DNA of 39,913 nt from Campylobacterota bacterium (GCA_034658775.1 JAYEFX010000050.1:1-39913); one strand, 5' to 3'. Shown: positions 1,326-27,716, counted from the first letter of the stretch. Made by a program: numbers and translations. The notes: generated from the sequence alone by a model not told the origin.

Positions 1326-2240
1326 ATGAAAAATCAAGATTACAGTCTCATTGGTATTGTTAGTTTAATCATCGCCATGTTTATTTGGGCAAGCTCGTTT
1401 ATTGCACTGAAATCTGCCATTTCAGATATCGATGCTTTTTCCGTCATATTTTTACGCATGTTTATCGCTTCGTTATGTTTTGTCTATTTTATTAAAGATT
1501 TTATCAACTATGAATTCACTAAAAAAGATCTGCAATACATCTTGCTTCTAGTGATGTTTGAACCCGCTTTATATTTTATCTTTGAAGCCAAAGCCTTGGA
1601 AAACACCTCAGCCTCACAAGCAGGTATGGTCACCTCTTTAATGCCTATCCTTACTGCTATTGCTGCAGGAATTTTGCTCAAAGAGATCATTAGTAAACAA
1701 CTTGTTATTGGTTCTTTATTAGCTGTAGCAGGTGTGGTTTGGTTAAGTCTAGAAGCCACTAGCAGCGATATTGCACCCAATCCAATTTTAGGAAATTTCT
1801 TAGAATTTTGTGCCATGCTTTGCGGAGCGGGTTACACGATTGTTGCGCGCTATTTATCCAGAAAATTTTCCGCACTGTTTATTACTGCGGTTCAATCTTT
1901 TTTTGGTGCCATCTTCTTTTTACCTTTTTTTGTTTACGAATACAGCACAACAAACATGAGTTTCTCTTTTGAAGCAATCTCTTGGATTGTTTATCTAGGA
2001 GTTGTTGTAACCTTAGGAGGATACGGTTTGTATAATTTTGCGTTAACCAAAATGGAAGCCTCTAAAGCATCAATGTTTATTAACCTCATCCCAATTTTCA
2101 CACTGATTTTAGCCTATGTGATTTTAGGAGAAAAACTCACTATTACCGAACTTATTGCTTCAGCAATCATATTAAGTGGAGTGATCATTTCACAAATTCC
2201 CTATCATAAAATCAAACGCAAACGCAAAAAAACGGCATAA
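1326..2240 (+). CDS. EamA/DMT-family permease
   Basis: 304-aa polytopic membrane protein with about 10 hydrophobic segments in two similar halves and a K/R-rich C-terminal tail. This is the EamA-like layout. Confidence 0.8.
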   Translation: MKNQDYSLIGIVSLIIAMFIWASSFIALKSAISDIDAFSVIFLRMFIASLCFVYFIKDFINYEFTKKDLQYILLLVMFEPALYFIFEAKALENTSASQAGMVTSLMPILTAIAAGILLKEIISKQLVIGSLLAVAGVVWLSLEATSSDIAPNPILGNFLEFCAMLCGAGYTIVARYLSRKFSALFITAVQSFFGAIFFLPFFVYEYSTTNMSFSFEAISWIVYLGVVVTLGGYGLYNFALTKMEASKASMFINLIPIFTLILAYVILGEKLTITELIASAIILSGVIISQIPYHKIKRKRKKTA

Positions 2241-3137
2241 ATGGAACTGTTTTTATCCATATTTATACTTATGGCACTGGGCTATATGTTCAATAAATTT
2301 AAAATCTTTCCAGAGCAAACCCCTTTGGTTTTAAACCTGTACATCATTTATGTCTCACTTCCTGCTATGGTGCTGTTGCATGTTCCAAAGATTGTATTGT
2401 CTTTGGATATGTTCTTTCCTATTGTGATCCCTTGGGTTATCACACTTTTAGGAGCATTGAGCATTTTAGCTTTATCCAATATTTTTCACTGGAATAAACA
2501 AACTACAGGAGCACTATTACTCGTAGGTGTTTTAGGAAATACCTCTTTTTTAGGCATCCCTATTGTGGAGTTTTATTTAGGAACACACGCCTTACCTTAC
2601 GTGATGATTTATGACCAATTGGGTACTTTCCTTGCATTAAGTACCTATGGAGGTATTGTTATCGCTTTATATTCAAAAAATGGTAAAGTTCATGCACGAA
2701 CAATTTTAATAAAGATATTCACGTTCCCTCCATTTATGGCACTTATTGTTGCCTTTGCATTAAGTGGCTATACTTTTTATCCAAGCATCAATACTGTACT
2801 GTCCAATTTGGCCAATACTTTAGTTCCAGTAGCCCTGGTTGCCGTAGGTTTTAGTTTACGCTTAAAAATTCCTAAAGAAGATTTGTCTGCTTTTATCTCA
2901 GGTCTAGGAGTCAAACTTATCTTGCTACCTAGCTTTGCATTTATTATTGCAGGAGTCTTTAACTTGGAGGGTCTAGCAGTAGATGTATCCATACTTGAAA
3001 GCGGAATGGGTCCCATGATCACGGCAGGCGCAGTGGCTACAATAGCAGGACTATCCGCTCGATTATGTTCCGCCATAATTGGTTATGGGATACTCTTTTC
3101 GTTCTTAAGCACTTACGTAGTTGCTTATTTTTTATAA
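2241..3137 (+). CDS. AEC (auxin efflux carrier) family transporter
   Basis: 298-aa polytopic membrane protein. The N-terminus (MELFLSIFILMALGY...) and the C-terminal half are AEC-like. Its ATG directly abuts the TAA of the upstream permease (TAAATG), suggesting an operon. Confidence 0.7.
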   Translation: MELFLSIFILMALGYMFNKFKIFPEQTPLVLNLYIIYVSLPAMVLLHVPKIVLSLDMFFPIVIPWVITLLGALSILALSNIFHWNKQTTGALLLVGVLGNTSFLGIPIVEFYLGTHALPYVMIYDQLGTFLALSTYGGIVIALYSKNGKVHARTILIKIFTFPPFMALIVAFALSGYTFYPSINTVLSNLANTLVPVALVAVGFSLRLKIPKEDLSAFISGLGVKLILLPSFAFIIAGVFNLEGLAVDVSILESGMGPMITAGAVATIAGLSARLCSAIIGYGILFSFLSTYVVAYFL

Positions 3138-4277
3138 AAATTTCATCTTTTCAAAATTACGGTAAGGATTCCTTTGATCATTAAACCATCCACTTAAAAT
3201 CGTATTGTACAAGCTTTTATACTCCGTGGTGTAGATCATGTTATCTTTAATCAACTTACGCAAATCAGGATAGTGTCCATACATTCCCCCTTTGACTTTT
3301 CCGCCTATAACAAATTGAGAAGATGCTGTACCATGATCCGTACCCATACTTGCATTTTCTTTAACTCTTCGCCCAAACTCACTGTACGTTACAATCAAAA
3401 CATCATCAAACAGATCATTACTTTTGAGTTCCTTCACAAAACTTCCCAAGGCACTGTCCAAATCTTTGAGCAAGCTATTTTGTGTTGATAATTGATTCGC
3501 GTGGGTATCGTAACTTTTTTGTGCAATTTTTATAATGGGGATATCCAAGGGGGTTTTGATAATTTTTAACGCCTCTTTGAAATCTAAAGCAATCTGGCTA
3601 TCATCAAAAGTATATTTCAACTCATCCTTAGAAATATACTTTTTCAGTATCGTATTGGCACGAACAATCAAGTTTTGTTGCTCTTGCACATATTTTAGAT
3701 TTTCATTAAAACCATCAATACTTTTTACACTGGATATTCTATTGGATTGTTCTAAAAACTTATTGATATTTTTAATCTGTAAAACATTTAAATCATTTGA
3801 AAACAGTTTTCCTTTATTGCGTTTTCCAATCACCATAGCATCTATAGGAACAGAACTTTTCTTTGAATGTAAATATTGTGCCACCCACCCTTCATCTAAA
3901 AACTGATCACTCATGCTTGCTGTTTCAACTATCTCAATGGAGCGAAAATGAGACAAATTAGGTTTTGCATAACCCAATCCATTGATTATTGCCACATTGT
4001 TATCTTGATACAAAGCATGGATATTGGAAAGGTTTTTATTCAATCCAAATTGTTTGTTGATAATATTCATTTGGCTCTTAGGCAAAGCCAATGTTGGTCG
4101 TAAGTTGTAATACACTTTACTCGTATATGGAATCACGGTATTTAATGCGTCATTTCCCCCATGCAACTCTATGAGAACCAATGTTTTTTTAGAATTCTTT
4201 TTAGCATTAAGTAAAACAGGGTGCAACACATACCATGCCGCGATTGCAGATAATTTAATAAAACTTCTTCGTTGCAT
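3132..4277 (-). CDS. DUF1501 domain protein (sulfatase/alkaline-phosphatase-like fold) with a twin-arginine signal
   Basis: The N-terminus MQRRSFIKLSAIAA has a Tat-type RR motif. Family motifs are present: HGGNDALNTVIPY and SEFGRRVKENASMGTDHGTAS. Confidence 0.8.
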   Translation of the reverse strand: MQRRSFIKLSAIAAWYVLHPVLLNAKKNSKKTLVLIELHGGNDALNTVIPYTSKVYYNLRPTLALPKSQMNIINKQFGLNKNLSNIHALYQDNNVAIINGLGYAKPNLSHFRSIEIVETASMSDQFLDEGWVAQYLHSKKSSVPIDAMVIGKRNKGKLFSNDLNVLQIKNINKFLEQSNRISSVKSIDGFNENLKYVQEQQNLIVRANTILKKYISKDELKYTFDDSQIALDFKEALKIIKTPLDIPIIKIAQKSYDTHANQLSTQNSLLKDLDSALGSFVKELKSNDLFDDVLIVTYSEFGRRVKENASMGTDHGTASSQFVIGGKVKGGMYGHYPDLRKLIKDNMIYTTEYKSLYNTILSGWFNDQRNPYRNFEKMKFL

Positions 4278-5491: not shown

Positions 5492-6382
5492 TTATCCTTT
5501 AAGTAGGTCCTTTAAACTATGCTGGGGATCTTTCCCTTGCAAAATATGCAATACTTCATTGGCTATGGGAGTGTAAATATCATGTTGCTGCCCTAAAAGA
5601 TGAATTGCTTTGGCTGTTGGCACACCCTCTGCAACCTCCCCTAAATCTTCAAGTATCTCTTCTAAACTTTGATTCTTTGCCAAACCAAGTCCCACTCTAA
5701 AATTTCTACTCATAGTACTGCTGGCTGTTAAAAACAGGTCCCCTGCTCCACTAAGTCCTAAAAATGTATCTTTTTTTGATCCAAAATGGTTACCAAAACG
5801 CTCCATCTCTACTAAACCTCGAGAGATAAGGCTCGCTCGTGCATTATTACCCAACTCAAGCCCATCGCATATCCCACTGGCTATTGCCAATACATTTTTA
5901 TACGCTCCCGCTATTTCCGCACCAATGACATCTGCACTGTAATACGTTTTAATAAATTGCGGAAAAAATTCTAAAAATTGGTAATAAAAATCTTCTTGCG
6001 CACTATTAATAACCAATGCCGTGGGTAAACCTTGCATCACTTCTGTTGCAAAAGAGGGTCCTGAGATAAAACCTAAATTTTCTCTTGGCACATATTGTTC
6101 ATATATCTCTTGTAAAAATGACCCACTACTCGCCTCAATCCCTTTGGCTGCCACCAACACTTTTTGCCCACTGTAGATGAAATTGTTCTTTAACCATGCT
6201 CGAATCTCTTGAGCGGGGATGGCAATAACCAAATACTCACACCCTAAGGCTGTTTGAAGATCGCAAAAGTGTTCTATATCGCGTACCTTACGAGAAGTAA
6301 TAGCTGTTGGGTTTTTTGTATTTAAAGCAAAGTGTAAAGCTTGACCCCATTTTCCTGCACCAATAACAGCTATATTTGACAT
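5492..6382 (-). CDS. gpsA: NAD(P)H-dependent glycerol-3-phosphate dehydrogenase
   Basis: N-terminal Rossmann motif IAVIGAGKWGQAL. GpsA-like blocks include GPSFA.EV and GDL.LT..S..SRN...G. Confidence 0.9.
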   Translation of the reverse strand: MSNIAVIGAGKWGQALHFALNTKNPTAITSRKVRDIEHFCDLQTALGCEYLVIAIPAQEIRAWLKNNFIYSGQKVLVAAKGIEASSGSFLQEIYEQYVPRENLGFISGPSFATEVMQGLPTALVINSAQEDFYYQFLEFFPQFIKTYYSADVIGAEIAGAYKNVLAIASGICDGLELGNNARASLISRGLVEMERFGNHFGSKKDTFLGLSGAGDLFLTASSTMSRNFRVGLGLAKNQSLEEILEDLGEVAEGVPTAKAIHLLGQQHDIYTPIANEVLHILQGKDPQHSLKDLLKG

Positions 6383-16800: not shown

Positions 16801-17499
16801 ATTAAAACAGCACCTTTTACAGGATTTCATCATCAGACCATAAAATTTCTAAAAAGTATTCAAAAAAACAATAATAAACCATGGTTCGAAGCGCATAAAA
16901 GTGATTATGAGCATATTATCAAATACCCTAGCATGGCATACATCAATGAGATGGGGGAACACCTCATCGCATTGGTCCCATCCATAAAAGCCTATCCAAA
17001 AGTAGGAGGGTCATTATTTAGAATCTATCGAGACGTTCGTTTTGCAAAAGATAAAACACCCATGAAAAGTAAAATTGGTTTTTTATTTTGGCAGGGCAAT
17101 GCTCATCGCATGCAAAGTGCTAGTTTTTATATGCATTATGACAGTTTTGAGGTTTTCTATGCTACGGGGATTCGTAGCTTCAAAGCACCCCTTTTGAAAA
17201 CCTATCGAGAGTATATACGTGATGTCAAAAATGCACAAGCACTGCATAGCATCTTAAACGATCTGGTAGAAAAAGGGTATCAGCTTCCACCTCCACACTT
17301 TAAGCGTTATCCTAAAGGGTTTAAACAAGAAGATCCATACAGCTATTTAAGTTTGTTTAATGCTGTGTATGCGTACAAAATATTTCCCTTGGATGATACT
17401 TTTTTTAAAAATGAGGAGTTTATTGATAGAGGTTTTGCCATCTATGAAGATATGCTTGATCTTCATACTTGGGTGCATGAACTTACACTAAGTGCCTAG
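16801..17499 (+). CDS. DUF2461 (TIGR02453) family protein, probably initiating at a non-canonical ATT
   Basis: The track ORF starts at ATG 16933. The in-frame upstream sequence IKTAPFTGFHHQTIKFLKSIQKNNNKPWFEAHKSDYEHIIKYPS encodes the conserved family N-terminus (F.GF...FL..L..NN.K.WF...K..YE). No ATG, GTG or TTG occurs between the in-frame stop (16765-16767) and 16933. ATT 16801 has AAAGAG 6 nt upstream. Confidence 0.6.
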   Translation: MKTAPFTGFHHQTIKFLKSIQKNNNKPWFEAHKSDYEHIIKYPSMAYINEMGEHLIALVPSIKAYPKVGGSLFRIYRDVRFAKDKTPMKSKIGFLFWQGNAHRMQSASFYMHYDSFEVFYATGIRSFKAPLLKTYREYIRDVKNAQALHSILNDLVEKGYQLPPPHFKRYPKGFKQEDPYSYLSLFNAVYAYKIFPLDDTFFKNEEFIDRGFAIYEDMLDLHTWVHELTLSA

Positions 17500-17539
17500 T
17501 TTACTCCATGCCCTGCCCTAACATCACTAGATAAATACT

Positions 17540-18085
17540 TTATAAACTTCCGACATAGGTAAGTTGTGCATTTGCCGCTCCATGCTTAAAAAATACAACC
17601 AGTGGAGCAGGAGCACCCTTTTGGCTTGTATTTTTACTAATCCATATTTTATATTCCACCCCTTGATCGTAAGTATTTTCGTATCCCACGCCCGTTGTTT
17701 TCAATCTTTGTATTCGTGTGATACGCACTGGATAGGTGTAATTTCGTGCATTACTGTGTGCTTTTTTAAAAGAGTAACGATAGGTATCATCATCCAATTG
17801 ATTTGCATTGTTTGTTAATAAACTACGATGCATCAAAGGGACAACCATACCCGAACTTTGATAGTATGAATTATTTTGCAAGATATTTAAAAACTGATTT
17901 AACACCTTATTTGCACTTTGCTGTTGATCTTTAGACATACTGCTTTGTATGCGGTTTTGTTGCACTGCACTTGGGTTTTGAATTTTTTGCACACCATTAA
18001 GAATATCGCCTAAGTCACTTAAGCTAAAAGCAAAAGCAGATGTTCCTAGTATCAACAGTGTATTTACAATAATCTTTTTTTTCAT
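17540..18085 (-). CDS. hypothetical secreted protein
   Basis: Signal peptide MKKKIIVNTLLILGTSAFA, AGGAG RBS, and a possible -10 TATACT upstream. No family recognised. Confidence 0.6.
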   Translation of the reverse strand: MKKKIIVNTLLILGTSAFAFSLSDLGDILNGVQKIQNPSAVQQNRIQSSMSKDQQQSANKVLNQFLNILQNNSYYQSSGMVVPLMHRSLLTNNANQLDDDTYRYSFKKAHSNARNYTYPVRITRIQRLKTTGVGYENTYDQGVEYKIWISKNTSQKGAPAPLVVFFKHGAANAQLTYVGSL

Positions 18086-18296
18086 TTTCTCTCCTGTGAG
18101 TCATATCCATAAGTATAGTAAAAACTTATTCCTAAAAAGTTCTTTTTACTCTAATGGGTGATTAATTTTGAAAAGAGGTTCAAAAGTAGGGGATAGTGGT
18201 TGCTTAGTAAATAGTTGAGCACTCATCTGGTACAGTAACGGCTCAATATTTCGACGGTGTAACCTTATTTTCTCCTCTGATTTATTATGTTCAATA

Positions 18297-19829
18297 CTAT
18301 ACCTTATCTATTTTTTCATTAATAAATTCCATAAATGGAATAATATTATTATGATTACTAGCTTGTTCTAATGCCTGCATATATCTTTGTCTTTCATCTT
18401 TTTTGATAATTATCCAAGGTTGCCCATACGATACCAATATACAATTCATTATAAATCTTGATATTCTTCCATTTCCATCTACATATGGATGAATAAATCC
18501 AAAAATAAAATGTCCCAAAATTGCTTTAGATAAAATATTTTCATCTTTTTTAATAACTTCAAAATATTTCTCCATAGAATCAAGTACAGCTTCTTTTGGA
18601 GGTGGGACATGCTCTGAGCCTCTTAAGTATATAGCGGTATTTCTATAGCCAATTAAATCACTTGCTTTGAGAATATTAGCTTGTACACTTGGCAAGAATA
18701 ACTTTTTATATAGTTTAGATTGTAAATCTGAAATATTATTTTCAATTTTTTCTTTTGATTCTAAACACTCTATGATATGTGACTTTAACTCTTCAAAGGC
18801 TTCAAAGTATCCTTTTGCGGCAAGAGCGTCACGAGTTTCTTTATCCTCTTCATTTTGTGCTGGATCCCAATTCTCATGTTTAATCTTTTCTATAAGTTCT
18901 GTTGTTACTTTGTATCCCTCTATAGATAAAGAGTGATAAGCATCTTGAGTATATTTTTCGTCCAATTCAGATAGTAGAATTTTTATATCTATTTTTTTTG
19001 CCTTAACATTACTATTCAATTCATTTATATTAGTAGAATATTTTTTCCATAACTCTTCAACTCGTGCTGCATAAGGACTTCTTAGTAATTGAGTACTATC
19101 AAATATAGGTTTTGTAGTATGAAAGGGATTAAAAGGAGTGATTTTAGGTCCAACTAATGAGGTATAGGTATCACTTATATTCTTGGCATCTTTTTCTCTT
19201 CCTAGATAAGTATAAGCACCAGATAATCTTGCTGCGGAAGTATCCATTCTTTTAAGGCTAATAAGCGAGTTAATTACTGTTGATACATCGCGAACTGATT
19301 TTAATGCTATTTCCATTTCTAAAGGATTATTTATAAAACTATTATTATCACTTTTACATAATGCATCTTCAATTCTAAAAATATTGACATCTCTTCTTTT
19401 ATCAAAATCTTTTGGAAAATTATGTTTATCTTCATATACAAACAGACTCATATTATTAGGAAGTTTAGTGGTTGATGATGATGGTCCTTTCTTTATTATT
19501 ACTGTTAACTGTTTTGGGATGGAGTTTTTTTCGGTATGAAGCATTAATGAGTCATGAGGATTTAAACAGTATCCATTTTTCCCAAATCTGTCACTTAAAT
19601 ATTTTGAAAAGAATAACCATGCATTTATGTACCAAACAGTTGTATCTCCTGATTGTGTACTTGGATCTTGTATACAATACCAACCTTTAACTATTGAAAA
19701 TAGATAGTCATTTTCTTTTAGTATTGTTATACTTTTGGCATCAAGCTTTTCTGATTTAAATACATTCCCTTCTTTCTCTTGTATCTTCCGTAAAGAGGAT
19801 AGTGCTTTTGCAAGAATTTTATTAATCAT
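18297..19829 (-). CDS. Fic-domain protein (510 aa) with an AbiEi-like N-terminal module and an intramolecular inhibitory motif
   Basis: Fic active-site motif HPYVDGNGR at aa 447-455 (nt 18465-18491, back-translated and verified). Inhibitory-helix motif SLSIEG at aa 300-305 (nt 18915-18932). N-terminal pattern LFSIVKGWYCIQDP / GYCLNPHDSLMLHTEKNSIPKQLTVIIKKG / IFRIEDALCK. AGGAA RBS 6 nt upstream of the ATG. Confidence 0.9.
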   Translation of the reverse strand: MINKILAKALSSLRKIQEKEGNVFKSEKLDAKSITILKENDYLFSIVKGWYCIQDPSTQSGDTTVWYINAWLFFSKYLSDRFGKNGYCLNPHDSLMLHTEKNSIPKQLTVIIKKGPSSSTTKLPNNMSLFVYEDKHNFPKDFDKRRDVNIFRIEDALCKSDNNSFINNPLEMEIALKSVRDVSTVINSLISLKRMDTSAARLSGAYTYLGREKDAKNISDTYTSLVGPKITPFNPFHTTKPIFDSTQLLRSPYAARVEELWKKYSTNINELNSNVKAKKIDIKILLSELDEKYTQDAYHSLSIEGYKVTTELIEKIKHENWDPAQNEEDKETRDALAAKGYFEAFEELKSHIIECLESKEKIENNISDLQSKLYKKLFLPSVQANILKASDLIGYRNTAIYLRGSEHVPPPKEAVLDSMEKYFEVIKKDENILSKAILGHFIFGFIHPYVDGNGRISRFIMNCILVSYGQPWIIIKKDERQRYMQALEQASNHNNIIPFMEFINEKIDKV

Positions 19830-19842
19830 TTTAAATTCCTTG

Positions 19843-19905
19843 TATTTACATGTTTATATTGTATCATAAATACATGGTTTATCAAATTATATTTACATGT
19901 TTATA
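19843..19905 (-). repeat. three phased operator-like repeats in the fic promoter
   Basis: Perfect 16-bp direct repeat TATTTACATGTTTATA at 19843-19858 and 19890-19905. A degenerate middle copy (ATAAATACATGGTTTAT) is centred at 19871-19876. The TACATG cores start at 19847, 19871 and 19894 (24 and 23 bp apart). Each unit is an imperfect palindrome (TATnnACATGTnnATA). Confidence 0.65.
19858..19866 (-). promoter_or_regulatory. putative extended -10 promoter of fic (TGaTACAAT)
   Basis: The minus strand reads TGATACAAT about 29 nt upstream of the ATG. The predicted transcription start falls inside the proximal repeat. The TGnTAnAAT form is the usual promoter shape in Campylobacterota. Confidence 0.45.
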
Positions 19906-20120
19906 ACTTTCTTAGGTAGAAACATAACGTTTGTCGTAACCAATAATTTTCCCGCTATGCTAAATTATTGCGTTCCTCATACTTATTAAGTGATCTATTG
20001 TAAAATATCATGTTTTTTAGATCTTAAAACTCAATAAGATATGATTTTGATGCATGATTTATACCTGTATATAGATCATTCCTCACTCCCAAATGAAGAG
20101 ACTTAGAATGATCGTAAGTG

Positions 20121-20656
20121 TTATTTTTTAGCTAATATTGCGTCAATATCGCTACGAATTTGTGATTGGGCAACCATACCTGAATACATCTGTCGCACAA
20201 CCCCTTTTTGATCAAATAAGATCATGAAAGGGATCATCCCTTTCCATTGGGCTGCACTCATAATAAATCCTGTAAAATCTTGCATATCGGGATGATCTGC
20301 AACTTGATAATTTAACTTTTTTTCTTTAATAAATGCATTTAACTCTTCAGGGCTCATTGGTTTTTGAACCTGTAAAGCAATAATTTCAAAATCTTTTTTA
20401 TAATCATCTTGAATCTCAATCAAATGAGGGATCTCCATCAAACAAGGGGGACACTTTTTACCAAAAAAGTTGAGTAAAATAACTTTCCCTTTTGCCTCTT
20501 TAAAATCTAAACCCGCTTCACTGGCTGTTATATTTATCTGCTTCCCATTTGAGTCAGGGAAAGAAAAATCATACGATGTTGGTGCTGGCTCTTGCGCCAT
20601 TAAGGAGGAAGAGATAATAAGTGCAATGCTAAATAAAAATAGTTGTATTTTCTTCA

Positions 20657-20657
<1 letters not shown>
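20121..20657 (-). CDS. TlpA/ResA-like periplasmic thiol:disulfide oxidoreductase
   Basis: Signal peptide MKKIQLFLFSIALIISSSLMA and a thioredoxin-fold CPPC motif (FFGKKCPPCLMEIPHL). The start overlaps the thiC stop by 1 nt (TAATG). Confidence 0.8.
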
Positions 20658-22015
<1,358 letters not shown>

Positions 22016-26851: not shown

Positions 26852-27057
26852 TAGGCTTTTGATTCAGTTTCTGGTTGTTCAATGTCGCATTTTTTTGTAA
26901 TGATACAAAGGGGACAAAAATCAGCTAATCCAGCAATCAGAGGAATAACTCCCAAATAAAACCATGGGTTGCTCAAGAAAAAACCAACGGCAATCAAAAT
27001 TAACCCCAATGCGATTCTAAACTTTCGACAAAATGCTCTAATTTTGTTATAATTCAT
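26851..27057 (-). CDS. DUF2892 (YgaP-like) small membrane protein
   Basis: 68 aa with two TM helices and a C-terminal ...GLADFCPLC motif typical of DUF2892. The stop overlaps the purM start by 1 nt. Confidence 0.6.
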   Translation of the reverse strand: MNYNKIRAFCRKFRIALGLILIAVGFFLSNPWFYLGVIPLIAGLADFCPLCIITKKCDIEQPETESKA

Positions 27058-27106
27058 ATATATCCTTTAATTTAATTTATTAATTCATTGTATTTTAAAA
27101 AATCTT

Positions 27107-27115
27107 TGGTATTAT
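27107..27115 (+). promoter_or_regulatory. putative extended -10 promoter (TGGTATTAT) of the speE-like/coaE/dapF operon
   Basis: TGGTATTAT ends 46 nt upstream of the ATG at 27162. An AAAGAAAGG RBS region follows. Confidence 0.4.
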
Positions 27116-27161
27116 AGCGAATAATTAACTAATACAATATAAAAAGAAAGGCTTAAATAGC

Positions 27162-27716
27162 ATGGCAAATATAGAAAATAAAAATTTTACTTTTAATGAA
27201 ATGAGAGTACATGTTCCCGTATGCACACACAAAGATCCTCAAAAGGTTTTGATCATTGGATCTGTAGATGAAGAGTTTAAATCAGAAATGGAAAAACATC
27301 CTGTAGAAGCTGAATATGGAGAGATGGAACTGTTAACATCAAAAAATGAACAAGAGTTTGATATTATCATTTTAGCAAAAGACAAAATTGATCCAATGCT
27401 GATGGCAAACATCAATAAAATCTTAAAAGCAGATGGAATTTTAACCATTAAAACACCAAGTTATCACAAAGACGAACAAGAGTTGAAAAACAATTTAACG
27501 CTATTGGGTGAAAGCTTTTGGATTGCAATGCCCTATTCATTTGGACACAACACAGCAATTTTAGCCTCTAAAAAGTACCATCCAACAGCTGATATCAATC
27601 TTCAACGATCAGATCTGCTTGATGATTTGAATTATTACTCTACGGAGATTCATCATGCATCATTTGTTTTTCCTGCGCATATTCACCAAAGTTTAACCGG
27701 CATTGCAAAACGATAA
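27162..27716 (+). CDS. short, divergent spermidine-synthase-like protein
   Basis: PQKVLIIGSVDEE sits where SpeE has P.kVLiIGGGDGG. FDIIILAKDKIDP sits where SpeE has yDvIi.D..DP. The C-terminus YYSTEIHHASFVFPAHI resembles SpeE ...y.n.eiH.aaF.lP. It lies next to coaE, as speE does in H. pylori (from memory). At only 184 aa it has no N-terminal domain. Confidence 0.5.
   Translation: MANIENKNFTFNEMRVHVPVCTHKDPQKVLIIGSVDEEFKSEMEKHPVEAEYGEMELLTSKNEQEFDIIILAKDKIDPMLMANINKILKADGILTIKTPSYHKDEQELKNNLTLLGESFWIAMPYSFGHNTAILASKKYHPTADINLQRSDLLDDLNYYSTEIHHASFVFPAHIHQSLTGIAKR

Follow-up and report, generated by a model that had tools for sequence, protein, structure and literature searches.

The stretch of Campylobacterota DNA analysed here, 39,913 nt long and hereafter called the window (GCA_034658775.1, JAYEFX010000050.1:1-39913), contains a solitary gene on the minus strand for a 510-aa protein in which a predicted AbiEi-like N-terminal module is joined to a class II Fic domain. 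The open reading frame (ORF) lies between a 181-aa ORF at 17540-18085 and the TlpA-like and ThiC ORFs at 20121-22015. It is separated from them by 211 and 291 nt, which rank about fourth and second among the longest intergenic regions of the window. An earlier note on this DNA had described this placement and counted both gaps among the longest, and the ORF list and gap ranking bear it out. The gene had also been called AT-rich relative to its neighbours. This holds when computed: its whole-ORF G+C content (0.291) and its G+C content at third codon positions (GC3; 0.170) are the lowest of the 33 window ORFs of at least 150 aa (mean 0.357, standard deviation 0.029, and mean 0.283, standard deviation 0.044, respectively), and four consecutive 500-nt intervals at the gene have a G+C content of at most 0.30. 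The features of the locus, each with the evidence on which it rests, are the following:

18297..19829, minus strand: 510-aa ORF, AbiEi-like N-terminal module (N-module) plus class II Fic domain (ATG start, ORF list, full-length homologues)
19662..19829, minus strand: aa 1-56, predicted winged helix-turn-helix (wHTH) with the order H1-S1-short H2-H3-S2-wing-S3 (secondary structure of the AlphaFold2 (AF2) model)
19152..19643, minus strand: aa 63-226, predicted nucleotidyltransferase (NTase)-like domain resembling the AbiEi C-terminal domain, with a long helix, mixed beta-sheet and six-helix bundle (Foldseek)
18960..19151, minus strand: aa 227-290, linker with a conserved NPF and a helix at aa 252-271 (homologue alignment, HMMER alignment to FICD)
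18300..18959, minus strand: aa 291-510, Fic core, FICD/HYPE-like, class II (Pfam, PDB sequence search, Foldseek)
18915..18932, minus strand: aa 300-305, inhibitory-helix motif SLSIEG, of the form [ST]xxxE[GN], with Glu304 (FICD alignment, invariance)
18465..18491, minus strand: aa 447-455, Fic catalytic loop HPYVDGNGR, followed by R458 (invariant in 45 homologues)
19837..19841, minus strand: ribosome-binding site AAGGA, 8-12 nt upstream of the ATG
19843..19902, minus strand: putative operator with three direct repeats (repeat search, shuffle test, 17 further loci)
19890-19902, minus strand: direct repeat R1, AAACATGTAAATA
19867-19880, minus strand: direct repeat R2, AAACCATGTATTTA
19843-19855, minus strand: direct repeat R3, AAACATGTAAATA
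19858..19885, minus strand: predicted sigma-70-like promoter, -35 TTGATA at 19885-19880 and extended -10 TGATACAAT at 19866-19858 (promoter scan, best-scoring with TG)
18295..19915, minus strand: unit of DNA homology comprising operator, promoter and ORF (blastn; ends at the stop codon)

By sequence and predicted structure, the C-terminal half belongs to the FICD-like Fic domains of class II, with intramolecular inhibition. Both motifs read in the earlier note, HPYVDGNGR at aa 447-455 and SLSIEG at aa 300-305, are present in the translation. The Pfam Fic model PF02661 matches aa 394-465 with 49.5 bits against a cutoff of 24 (E 7.8e-13). In a PDB sequence search the closest chains, those of human FICD/HYPE, cover aa 241-504 (E 6e-19) and place SLSIEG onto the inhibitory TVAIEG of FICD. 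An AF2 model of the full-length protein (predicted local distance difference test (pLDDT) 92.7, predicted template modelling score (pTM) 0.89) has FICD chains as its top Foldseek matches (E 2.7e-10 to 3e-9, prob 1.00), followed by C. elegans Fic-1, BT_2513, CdFic (target-normalised template modelling score (TMt) 0.77) and SoFic. In the model SLSIEG falls within helix 282-303, N-terminal to the Fic core on the same polypeptide. The alignment of the two motifs and the rank of FICD thus support the intramolecular class II architecture proposed earlier, and the catalytic loop, the N-terminal inhibitory motif and the Fic fold of that class are all found. The signature HxFx(D/E)GN(G/K)RxxR is represented by HPYVDGNGRISR at aa 447-458, in which Tyr replaces the Phe that class II proteins have in their HPFx(D/E)GNGR loop. 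Among 45 full-length homologues (40-89% identity), residues H447, P448, Y449, D451, G452, N453, G454, R455 and R458 are invariant, as are all six residues of the inhibitory motif, S300-G305; therefore both the chemistry and the intramolecular brake appear to be under selection. In the linker, P235 and F236 are invariant and N234 is near-invariant in the homologue alignment, and sequence homology to the linker of FICD starts at about aa 241 in the HMMER alignment to FICD chains.

FICD is the closest solved relative of the Fic half by both sequence and structure, and the Fic core with its N-terminal inhibitory helix is common to FICD/HYPE and bacterial class II proteins such as SoFic, CdFic and BT_2513. 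The accessory parts differ: FICD has a transmembrane segment and tetratricopeptide repeat domains and works in the endoplasmic reticulum on BiP, and SoFic-type proteins combine Fic_N with a C-terminal winged helix, whereas the window protein carries the AbiEi-like N-module. It does not belong to the full-length SoFic family: the NCBIfam SoFic equivalog has a cutoff of 550 bits and gives it 24.6, and the match of the PADLOC SoFic model to aa 259-506 (E 1.9e-24; profile positions 27-259 of 361) is confined to the Fic core.

As a Foldseek query, the full-length model gave Fic matches only, and therefore a separate model of the N-module (aa 1-238, pLDDT 92) was made. In this model a winged helix is followed by a long helix, a row of strands and six helices. 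The elements of the winged helix, which ends with an invariant G49-W50 and a near-invariant Y51 in the homologue alignment, have the same order as those of the AbiEi wHTH (PMC3985639), and the second domain matches the AbiEi C-terminal domain in layout (PMC7319586). Searched against the PDB, the N-module has as its first match 1ZEL, the AbiEi homologue Rv2827c of M. tuberculosis, over the whole 238 aa (prob 1.00; query-normalised template modelling score (TMq) 0.56; 287 aligned columns; root-mean-square deviation (rmsd) 5.9 A). The structure comparison thus agrees with the AbiEi resemblance suggested earlier, and both parts of the AbiEi fold, a wHTH and an alpha/beta domain with a six-helix bundle, are recognised, with the caveat that the E-value of 1ZEL is only 7.8e-3. 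Next in rank are the DUF1814 NTase JHP933, viral poly(A) polymerases, ANT(4'), MenT1 and ANT(2'')-Ia (5KQJ). 1ZEL is the sole AbiEi-family entry in the top 50 matches, which do not include the S. agalactiae AbiEi structure. A search of BFVD viral structures with the same model yielded nothing significant.

Sequence profiles gave the following picture. Neither the window protein nor its N-terminus has an AbiEi match at E<=10 in Pfam, NCBIfam or PADLOC, and so the protein is not a member by curated AbiEi criteria (Pfam AbiEi_1/3/3_N/4, COG5340, PADLOC AbiEi); the AbiEi_3/AbiEi_4-type Pfam matches that had been expected did not appear, and Pfam holds no model for the N-module. PDB profile searches with two N-module alignments and one divergent member returned noise only and missed 1ZEL. 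When members of the family were scanned singly with PADLOC, AbiEi models made up four of the seven families matched by 18 members and 11 of the 14 matched by 26 very diverse ones (best E 2e-4), in both cases below threshold. These weak matches are collinear (aa 11-78 with profile positions 6-67, aa 32-87 with 30-82 and aa 37-113 with 38-112) and extend from the recognition helix into the second domain. The Pfam family matched by most members is AbiEi_3_N, at an E-value of only 0.12. It is conceivable that all this reflects a generic winged helix plus alpha/beta domain without common descent, in which case the gene would encode simply a Fic protein whose accessory domain, though DNA-binding, is unrelated to AbiEi; the curated thresholds that are not reached, the lack of any AbiEi match for the window protein, the E-value and rmsd of the 1ZEL match and the absence of the S. 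agalactiae AbiEi from the top 50 would all fit. We consider this unlikely, as 1ZEL comes first over the entire module and is followed by NTase folds including 5KQJ, which is also the case with AbiEi itself, and as 15 of the 21 weak PADLOC family matches in the two scans are collinear AbiEi models. We conclude that the N-terminal ~230 aa form what model and profiles indicate to be a remote AbiEi-type module, below every curated membership threshold. The fold assigned in the earlier note is therefore retained but its extent is revised from ~165 to ~230 aa.

The second domain of the module is probably catalytically degenerate. Of the residues between aa 85 and 150, S94, Q107, L123 and P139 alone are invariant and no Asp or Glu is conserved, and the invariant polar residues of the whole NTase-like domain are limited to R81, S94, Q107 and R201, with E173 near-invariant. 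Since a conserved acidic pair is missing, this domain is probably not an active transferase. The invariant polar set (with E173) could mark the ligand-binding pocket of a pseudo-enzyme.

Upstream of the gene, three copies of a ~14-nt motif occur within 75 nt before the start codon on the gene strand, with their CATGTA cores spaced by 23 and 24 nt. They are interleaved with the predicted promoter: the -35 element lies between R1 and R2 and overlaps the first base of R2, the extended -10 element lies between R2 and R3, and R3 covers the expected transcription start. This three-copy array is not significant by crude autocorrelation, a test that is insensitive in AT-rich DNA when an array has three copies whose spacing alternates between 23 and 24 nt; a longest-repeat shuffle test was used instead, in which none of 500 dinucleotide shuffles reached the length of the observed 19-nt repeat (18/19 identity; maximum in shuffles 15). 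Arrays of this kind were found at all 18 loci compared (the window and 17 others, together spanning Campylobacterota, Bdellovibrionota, Bacteroidota and Alpha-, Beta- and Gammaproteobacteria). Each has 2-7 repeats with a 23-24-nt period that end just before the start codon and overlap the promoter, the repeats being direct and not inverted. The period-23/24 autocorrelation was matched by at most one of 500-1000 shuffles in 11 of the 18 loci. The repeat motif itself differs by lineage (loci other than the window are given by their numbers):

L001, L003, L086, L087, L090 (close relatives): A(A/C)CATGTA(A/T)ATAT
L100: AAATACATGTAAT
L091, L098, L099, L092: TTCTAGTAAAT-type
L085: AAAACAAAAGTAAT
L101: AAAACATAGTAGAC
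L093 (Vibrio, seven copies): CGTAACTGAAAGTAAT
L094 (Agrobacterium, seven copies): AAAnTAGTG
L095 (Sulfitobacter): AAACCTAAA
L097 (Variovorax): AAA(C/T)CTAGCA
L096 (B. thetaiotaomicron): ACGAGTA(A/T)(A/T)TGCACG

A TGnTAnAAT element likewise lies between the last two repeats in L001, L003, L085, L087 and L090. The N-terminal helices and wing co-vary with the classes of repeat motif, which descent alone could explain. Only the ORF travels with the array. Most simply, the repeats would be bound by the winged helix of the protein itself, and the protein would in this way repress its own promoter.

Versions of the motif with GTAAAT and GTATTT alternate in successive repeats of the window (19843-19902) and of the arrays in L086 and L096, giving a 47-nt super-period; the binding units may therefore be pairs of non-identical sites. 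Directly upstream of the operator, a conserved element of ~70 nt (19922-19998, minus strand) contains a perfect 9-bp stem, CAATAATTT / AAATTATTG, with a loop of 12 nt. Two more copies are present in L086, the contig of an 85%-identical Fic homologue, at 3739-3805 and 5776-5853, and do not adjoin the homologue. Aligned with one another, the three sequences have a mean column identity of 78%; a fold z-score of only -1.1 was obtained, and Rfam has no match to the element. An Rfam scan of 17400-20700 returned a single sub-threshold CRISPR-DR match (E 0.29), judged to be noise.

The promoter and ORF constitute a solitary, horizontally mobile unit. In blastn comparisons with L087, L086, L001 and L003, identity of 80-87% extends only from 19915, 19905 or 19875 to 18295-18307, a shared unit of ~85 nt of promoter plus the ORF. 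Homologues that are 71-89% identical reside at unrelated loci: beside rnpA-yidC, between csgG/LPP20 and batD genes, by selB-selA, beside a TacA/GNAT pair with SIR2 and AAA_15, and within an integrase/TnsD-like/ParB element. More distant members lie between an integrase and a type I restriction-modification (R-M) system, near an insertion sequence (IS) with AAA_15/21 and a small Fic/HTH pair, by HicAB, by MNT/HEPN and a type IIG R-M enzyme, beside an IstB fragment, or alone among housekeeping genes; plasmid members are found by a resolvase near ArdC or near HipA and DUF262 genes. At individual loci the neighbours often include R-M systems, toxin-antitoxin (TA) modules, IS elements or integrases, and there is no conserved neighbour across the 18 loci. 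A DUF1814/AbiEii NTase ORF is present neither beside the window gene nor beside its homologues at the 17 other loci, and the flanks of the window gene hold no plausible partner, just ORFs of 21-44 aa, in agreement with the earlier note.

Classical two-gene TA modules (small Fic + HTH_3, HicAB, MNT/HEPN, TacA/GNAT) often lie within 1-6 kb of members of the family; those in L091 (1118-2210), L099 (8769-9387), L100 (5874-6616) and L086 (6947-7793) are examples.

On the side of thiC, the nearest genomes in GTDB (ThiC 80-88% identical) keep ispDF-thiC and lack tlpA, the Fic gene and everything beyond. The flanking genes had been taken for core genes, and this did not hold: tlpA, the 181-aa ORF and the genes beyond are absent downstream of thiC in these genomes, for which reason the flanks cannot be called a conserved core context. 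A TlpA-anchored metagenome scan found only relatives of 23-26% identity. Across L005-L012 (ThiC 69-88% identical; metagenome-assembled genomes of Sulfurimonas, Sulfuricurvum and 'Arcobacter'), synteny breaks right downstream of thiC, where the overlapping tlpA-like gene and the 181-aa, 188-aa and 213-aa ORFs are missing. Elsewhere in the window, the longest intergenic gap (26852-27161, 310 nt) coincides with the 500-nt interval of lowest G+C content (27001-27500, 0.276).

Alternatively, the gene could be a normal part of the core genome, inherited vertically and still in its native place, with an AT-richness that is incidental. Its housekeeping-type neighbours would fit, as would the lack of an integrase, IS or flanking repeats (the surroundings of the 1.6-kb unit were searched for target-site duplications and terminal inverted repeats, and none were found). 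However, its G+C content and GC3 are at the bottom of the 33 ORFs, its close homologues occupy five unrelated loci with homology that ends at the promoter and the stop codon, and the family is widespread on plasmids, all of which make this explanation highly improbable. The island behaviour proposed in the earlier note is supported by the outlying composition and the unrelated contexts of close homologues.

Proteins with this architecture over their full length, all domains being conserved, are found at 40-89% identity in sources that include Sulfurimonas, Sulfurospirillaceae, Malaciobacter, Deltaproteobacteria, Bdellovibrionaceae, Erysipelotrichia and Duganella, under generic labels such as 'Fic family protein', 'cell filamentation protein Fic', 'Fic/DOC family', 'fido' and 'hypothetical protein'. 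A profile of the N-module matched at least 1053 clusters at 50% identity (E<=1e-3) in a set of 1.84 billion representative proteins. About half of the best 150 of these matches are 500-530 aa long. Among the matches listed there is no evidence of a stand-alone N-module, the short ones looking like contig-end fragments, and the best 150 of the at least 1053 contain no sequence bridge from the N-module to AbiEi families. No remote stand-alone relative was found when every ORF of 98 sequences was searched with the N-module (hmmsearch). In PLSDB the N-module is present on 76 plasmids, 39 of them conjugative, including p5482 of B. thetaiotaomicron VPI-5482, Agrobacterium and Rhizobium plasmids and Vibrio megaplasmids; annotated matches sit under a 'Fic family protein' gene, with one 'hypothetical protein', and a few are unannotated. 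The fusion, of which the earlier note knew no characterised example, is thus common and no oddity, and the window gene typifies a large family.

The 33-kb conjugative plasmid p5482 (L096, NZ_CP092642.1) carries a full-length member, WP_011109635.1, at 1528-3036. A recombinase gene immediately precedes it, an ArdC-like gene lies nearby, and near-identical plasmids of ~33 kb occur in Parabacteroides, Phocaeicola and other Bacteroides. As a plasmid of a model gut bacterium, p5482 offers a ready experimental system.

In another explanation, the protein would be a transferred effector or interbacterial toxin, resembling CccR or the type IV secretion system (T4SS)-translocated VbhT, which conjugation or secretion machinery delivers to other cells and which is autoregulated in the producer; 39 of the 76 carrier plasmids are conjugative, and in two cases the gene is within a tra region. 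CccR of Yersinia pseudotuberculosis has a Fic AMP-transferase and a DNA-binding domain in one polypeptide, as here, represses its own promoter, AMPylates FtsZ and acts as a growth-arresting toxin that is secreted. It differs from the window protein in that its Fic domain is N-terminal (the order is reversed), its DNA-binding fold is another one and it is exported by a type VI secretion system (T6SS); the parts of its description considered here make no note of a repeat-array operator. Against delivery, no secretion signal or BID-like domain was detected in the window protein, and no T6SS or T4SS genes adjoin the window copy or most chromosomal copies. We regard the effector explanation as quite unlikely.

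Taken as a whole, the gene may be read as a self-contained, mobile one-gene module, an autorepressed and auto-inhibited Fic enzyme that acts as a selfish, TA-like or defence module, and we give this reading an even chance. Several protomers would bind the repeat array head-to-tail through their winged helices and occlude the promoter, which would repress transcription of the gene and keep the enzyme scarce. Glu304 of the inhibitory helix would block productive ATP binding in the Fic active site. A trigger, for which phage infection, loss of the element or an altered oligomeric or DNA-bound state are candidates, would relieve auto-inhibition, after which the Fic domain would AMPylate a cellular target and arrest growth. 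The outcome would be a single-polypeptide, TA-like addiction or abortive-infection module. Circumstantially, the solitary mobile unit, its variable loci, its carriage on plasmids and neighbours such as R-M systems, HicAB, MNT/HEPN and TacAT would fit a function of this class.

Known systems differ from the window family in various respects. In the class I pair FicT/FicA (VbhT/VbhA), the glutamate of the inhibitory helix reportedly neutralises the Fic toxin; there a separate small antitoxin supplies the helix, whereas here the helix is intramolecular and the 'antitoxin-like' part is the AbiEi-type module. SoFic is likewise a solitary Fic protein, whose AMPylation is toxic during infection and provides abortive-infection anti-phage defence, with an activity that depends on dimerisation (PMC12249575); unlike the window gene, whose DNA homology extends no further than the stop codon and which has no partner ORF, it has a small downstream antitoxin, AS1. 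AbiEi of S. agalactiae and Rv2827c (1ZEL), from type IV AbiE/MenAT systems, share with the N-module the same-order wHTH followed by a long helix, strands and an NTase-like six-helix bundle, and like it have ~23-bp repeated sites over their own promoter, which in AbiEi and Rv2827c serve autorepression (PMC3985639, PMC7319586). They differ in being paired with a separate DUF1814/AbiEii toxin gene, where the window family has a covalent Fic fusion and no bicistronic arrangement, and the sequence similarity of the family to them is below every curated threshold. Also in Campylobacterota, H. pylori ICEHptfs3 combines an AbiEi-like gene, V21, with fic1 (V22.1), which replaces the AbiEii-like toxin gene, as a proposed TA pair (preprint, PMC12443045); these are two overlapping, uncharacterised genes and not a fusion, and we liken them to the window gene by their description and not by sequence. 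CccR, SoFic, AbiEi/Rv2827c and the ICEHptfs3 pair thus provide precedents for each element of the mechanism.

Several observations weigh against reading the gene as a toxic TA-like or defence module with AbiEi-type control. Class II Fic proteins that retain the inhibitory Glu, such as FICD and EfFic, can be mainly deAMPylases, and the enzyme therefore need not be a toxin. Homologues of the N-module are absent from 50,697 phage records. The missing AbiEi match of the window protein, the failure of the PDB profile searches to find 1ZEL and the non-significant autocorrelation of the window's own array, given above, belong here as well. The gene follows traN on the Vibrio plasmid pVb1762 (L093) and lies between traAFBH and traM/traR on the Agrobacterium plasmid pAoF64/95 (L094), and location in transfer regions fits other roles. 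Finally, the sites of AbiEi and Rv2827c are inverted repeats, in one or two pairs, whereas those of the window family are 2-7 direct repeats (PMC3985639, PMC7319586).

The copies in L093 and L094, in or at the edge of transfer regions, carry the longest repeat arrays, of seven copies each, and a connection with conjugation or with the establishment of plasmids is hinted at.

The main rival is a regulator or deAMPylase of mobile-element functions: the protein would be a transcription factor of mobile elements and not a toxin, its AbiEi-like module would bind the repeat array and perhaps further sites, and its Fic domain would be a regulatory or sensory one, a deAMPylase or auto-AMPylase that tunes DNA binding. 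The repeat array at the promoter of all loci, the invariant inhibitory Glu and the position in or beside the conjugative transfer operons of pVb1762 and pAoF64/95 agree with it, as does the fact that Glu-intact FICD is chiefly a deAMPylase. On the other hand, the exact operator 13-mer occurs in the 40-kb window at the gene's own promoter only, so no regulon is visible there; the complete loop HPYxDGNGRxxR is invariant, which argues for maintained transferase chemistry; and the gene often has only housekeeping genes around it, none of them an obvious target of regulation. On balance we think a regulator possible, though well short of probable.

A bolder form of the one-gene module is a one-protein TA or abortive-infection system with DNA-scaffolded control. 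Here a head-to-tail oligomer on an array of 3-7 repeat units, together with the pseudo-NTase domain, would hold Fic inactive, and AMPylating monomers would be freed when the array is lost or diluted or when the AbiEi-like domain senses a signal, either phage-derived or a nucleotide. We put this forward as a rather doubtful, speculative extension. Were it true, AbiEi-type modules would be general-purpose regulators of toxins beyond DUF1814 NTases.

Class II Fic domains, AbiEi-type modules and Fic-HTH fusions in general (Kinch et al. 2009) are known kinds, and in the literature that was searched we found no description of a family of AbiEi-type-class II Fic fusions or of its repeat-array operator. 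New here are the unrelated loci of close homologues, DNA homology limited to promoter and ORF, and the 23-24-bp repeat array at 18 of 18 loci. The family, with its at least 1053 clusters, spans at least six bacterial lineages and is present on conjugative plasmids of well-studied organisms, and is therefore directly testable. We see in it no categorical surprise, but a widespread system with clean boundaries that is open to experiment and comes with a specific, testable protein-DNA prediction. Even if the proposed model fails, the N-module, a domain so far without annotation or Pfam model, merits a name. If the model is true, AbiEi-type regulation would extend past nucleotidyltransferase toxins, the family would be a single-polypeptide instance of toxin-antitoxin logic, and its lineage-specific, iterated 23-24-bp sites would provide a defined protein-DNA system for the coupling of Fic activity to oligomeric state.

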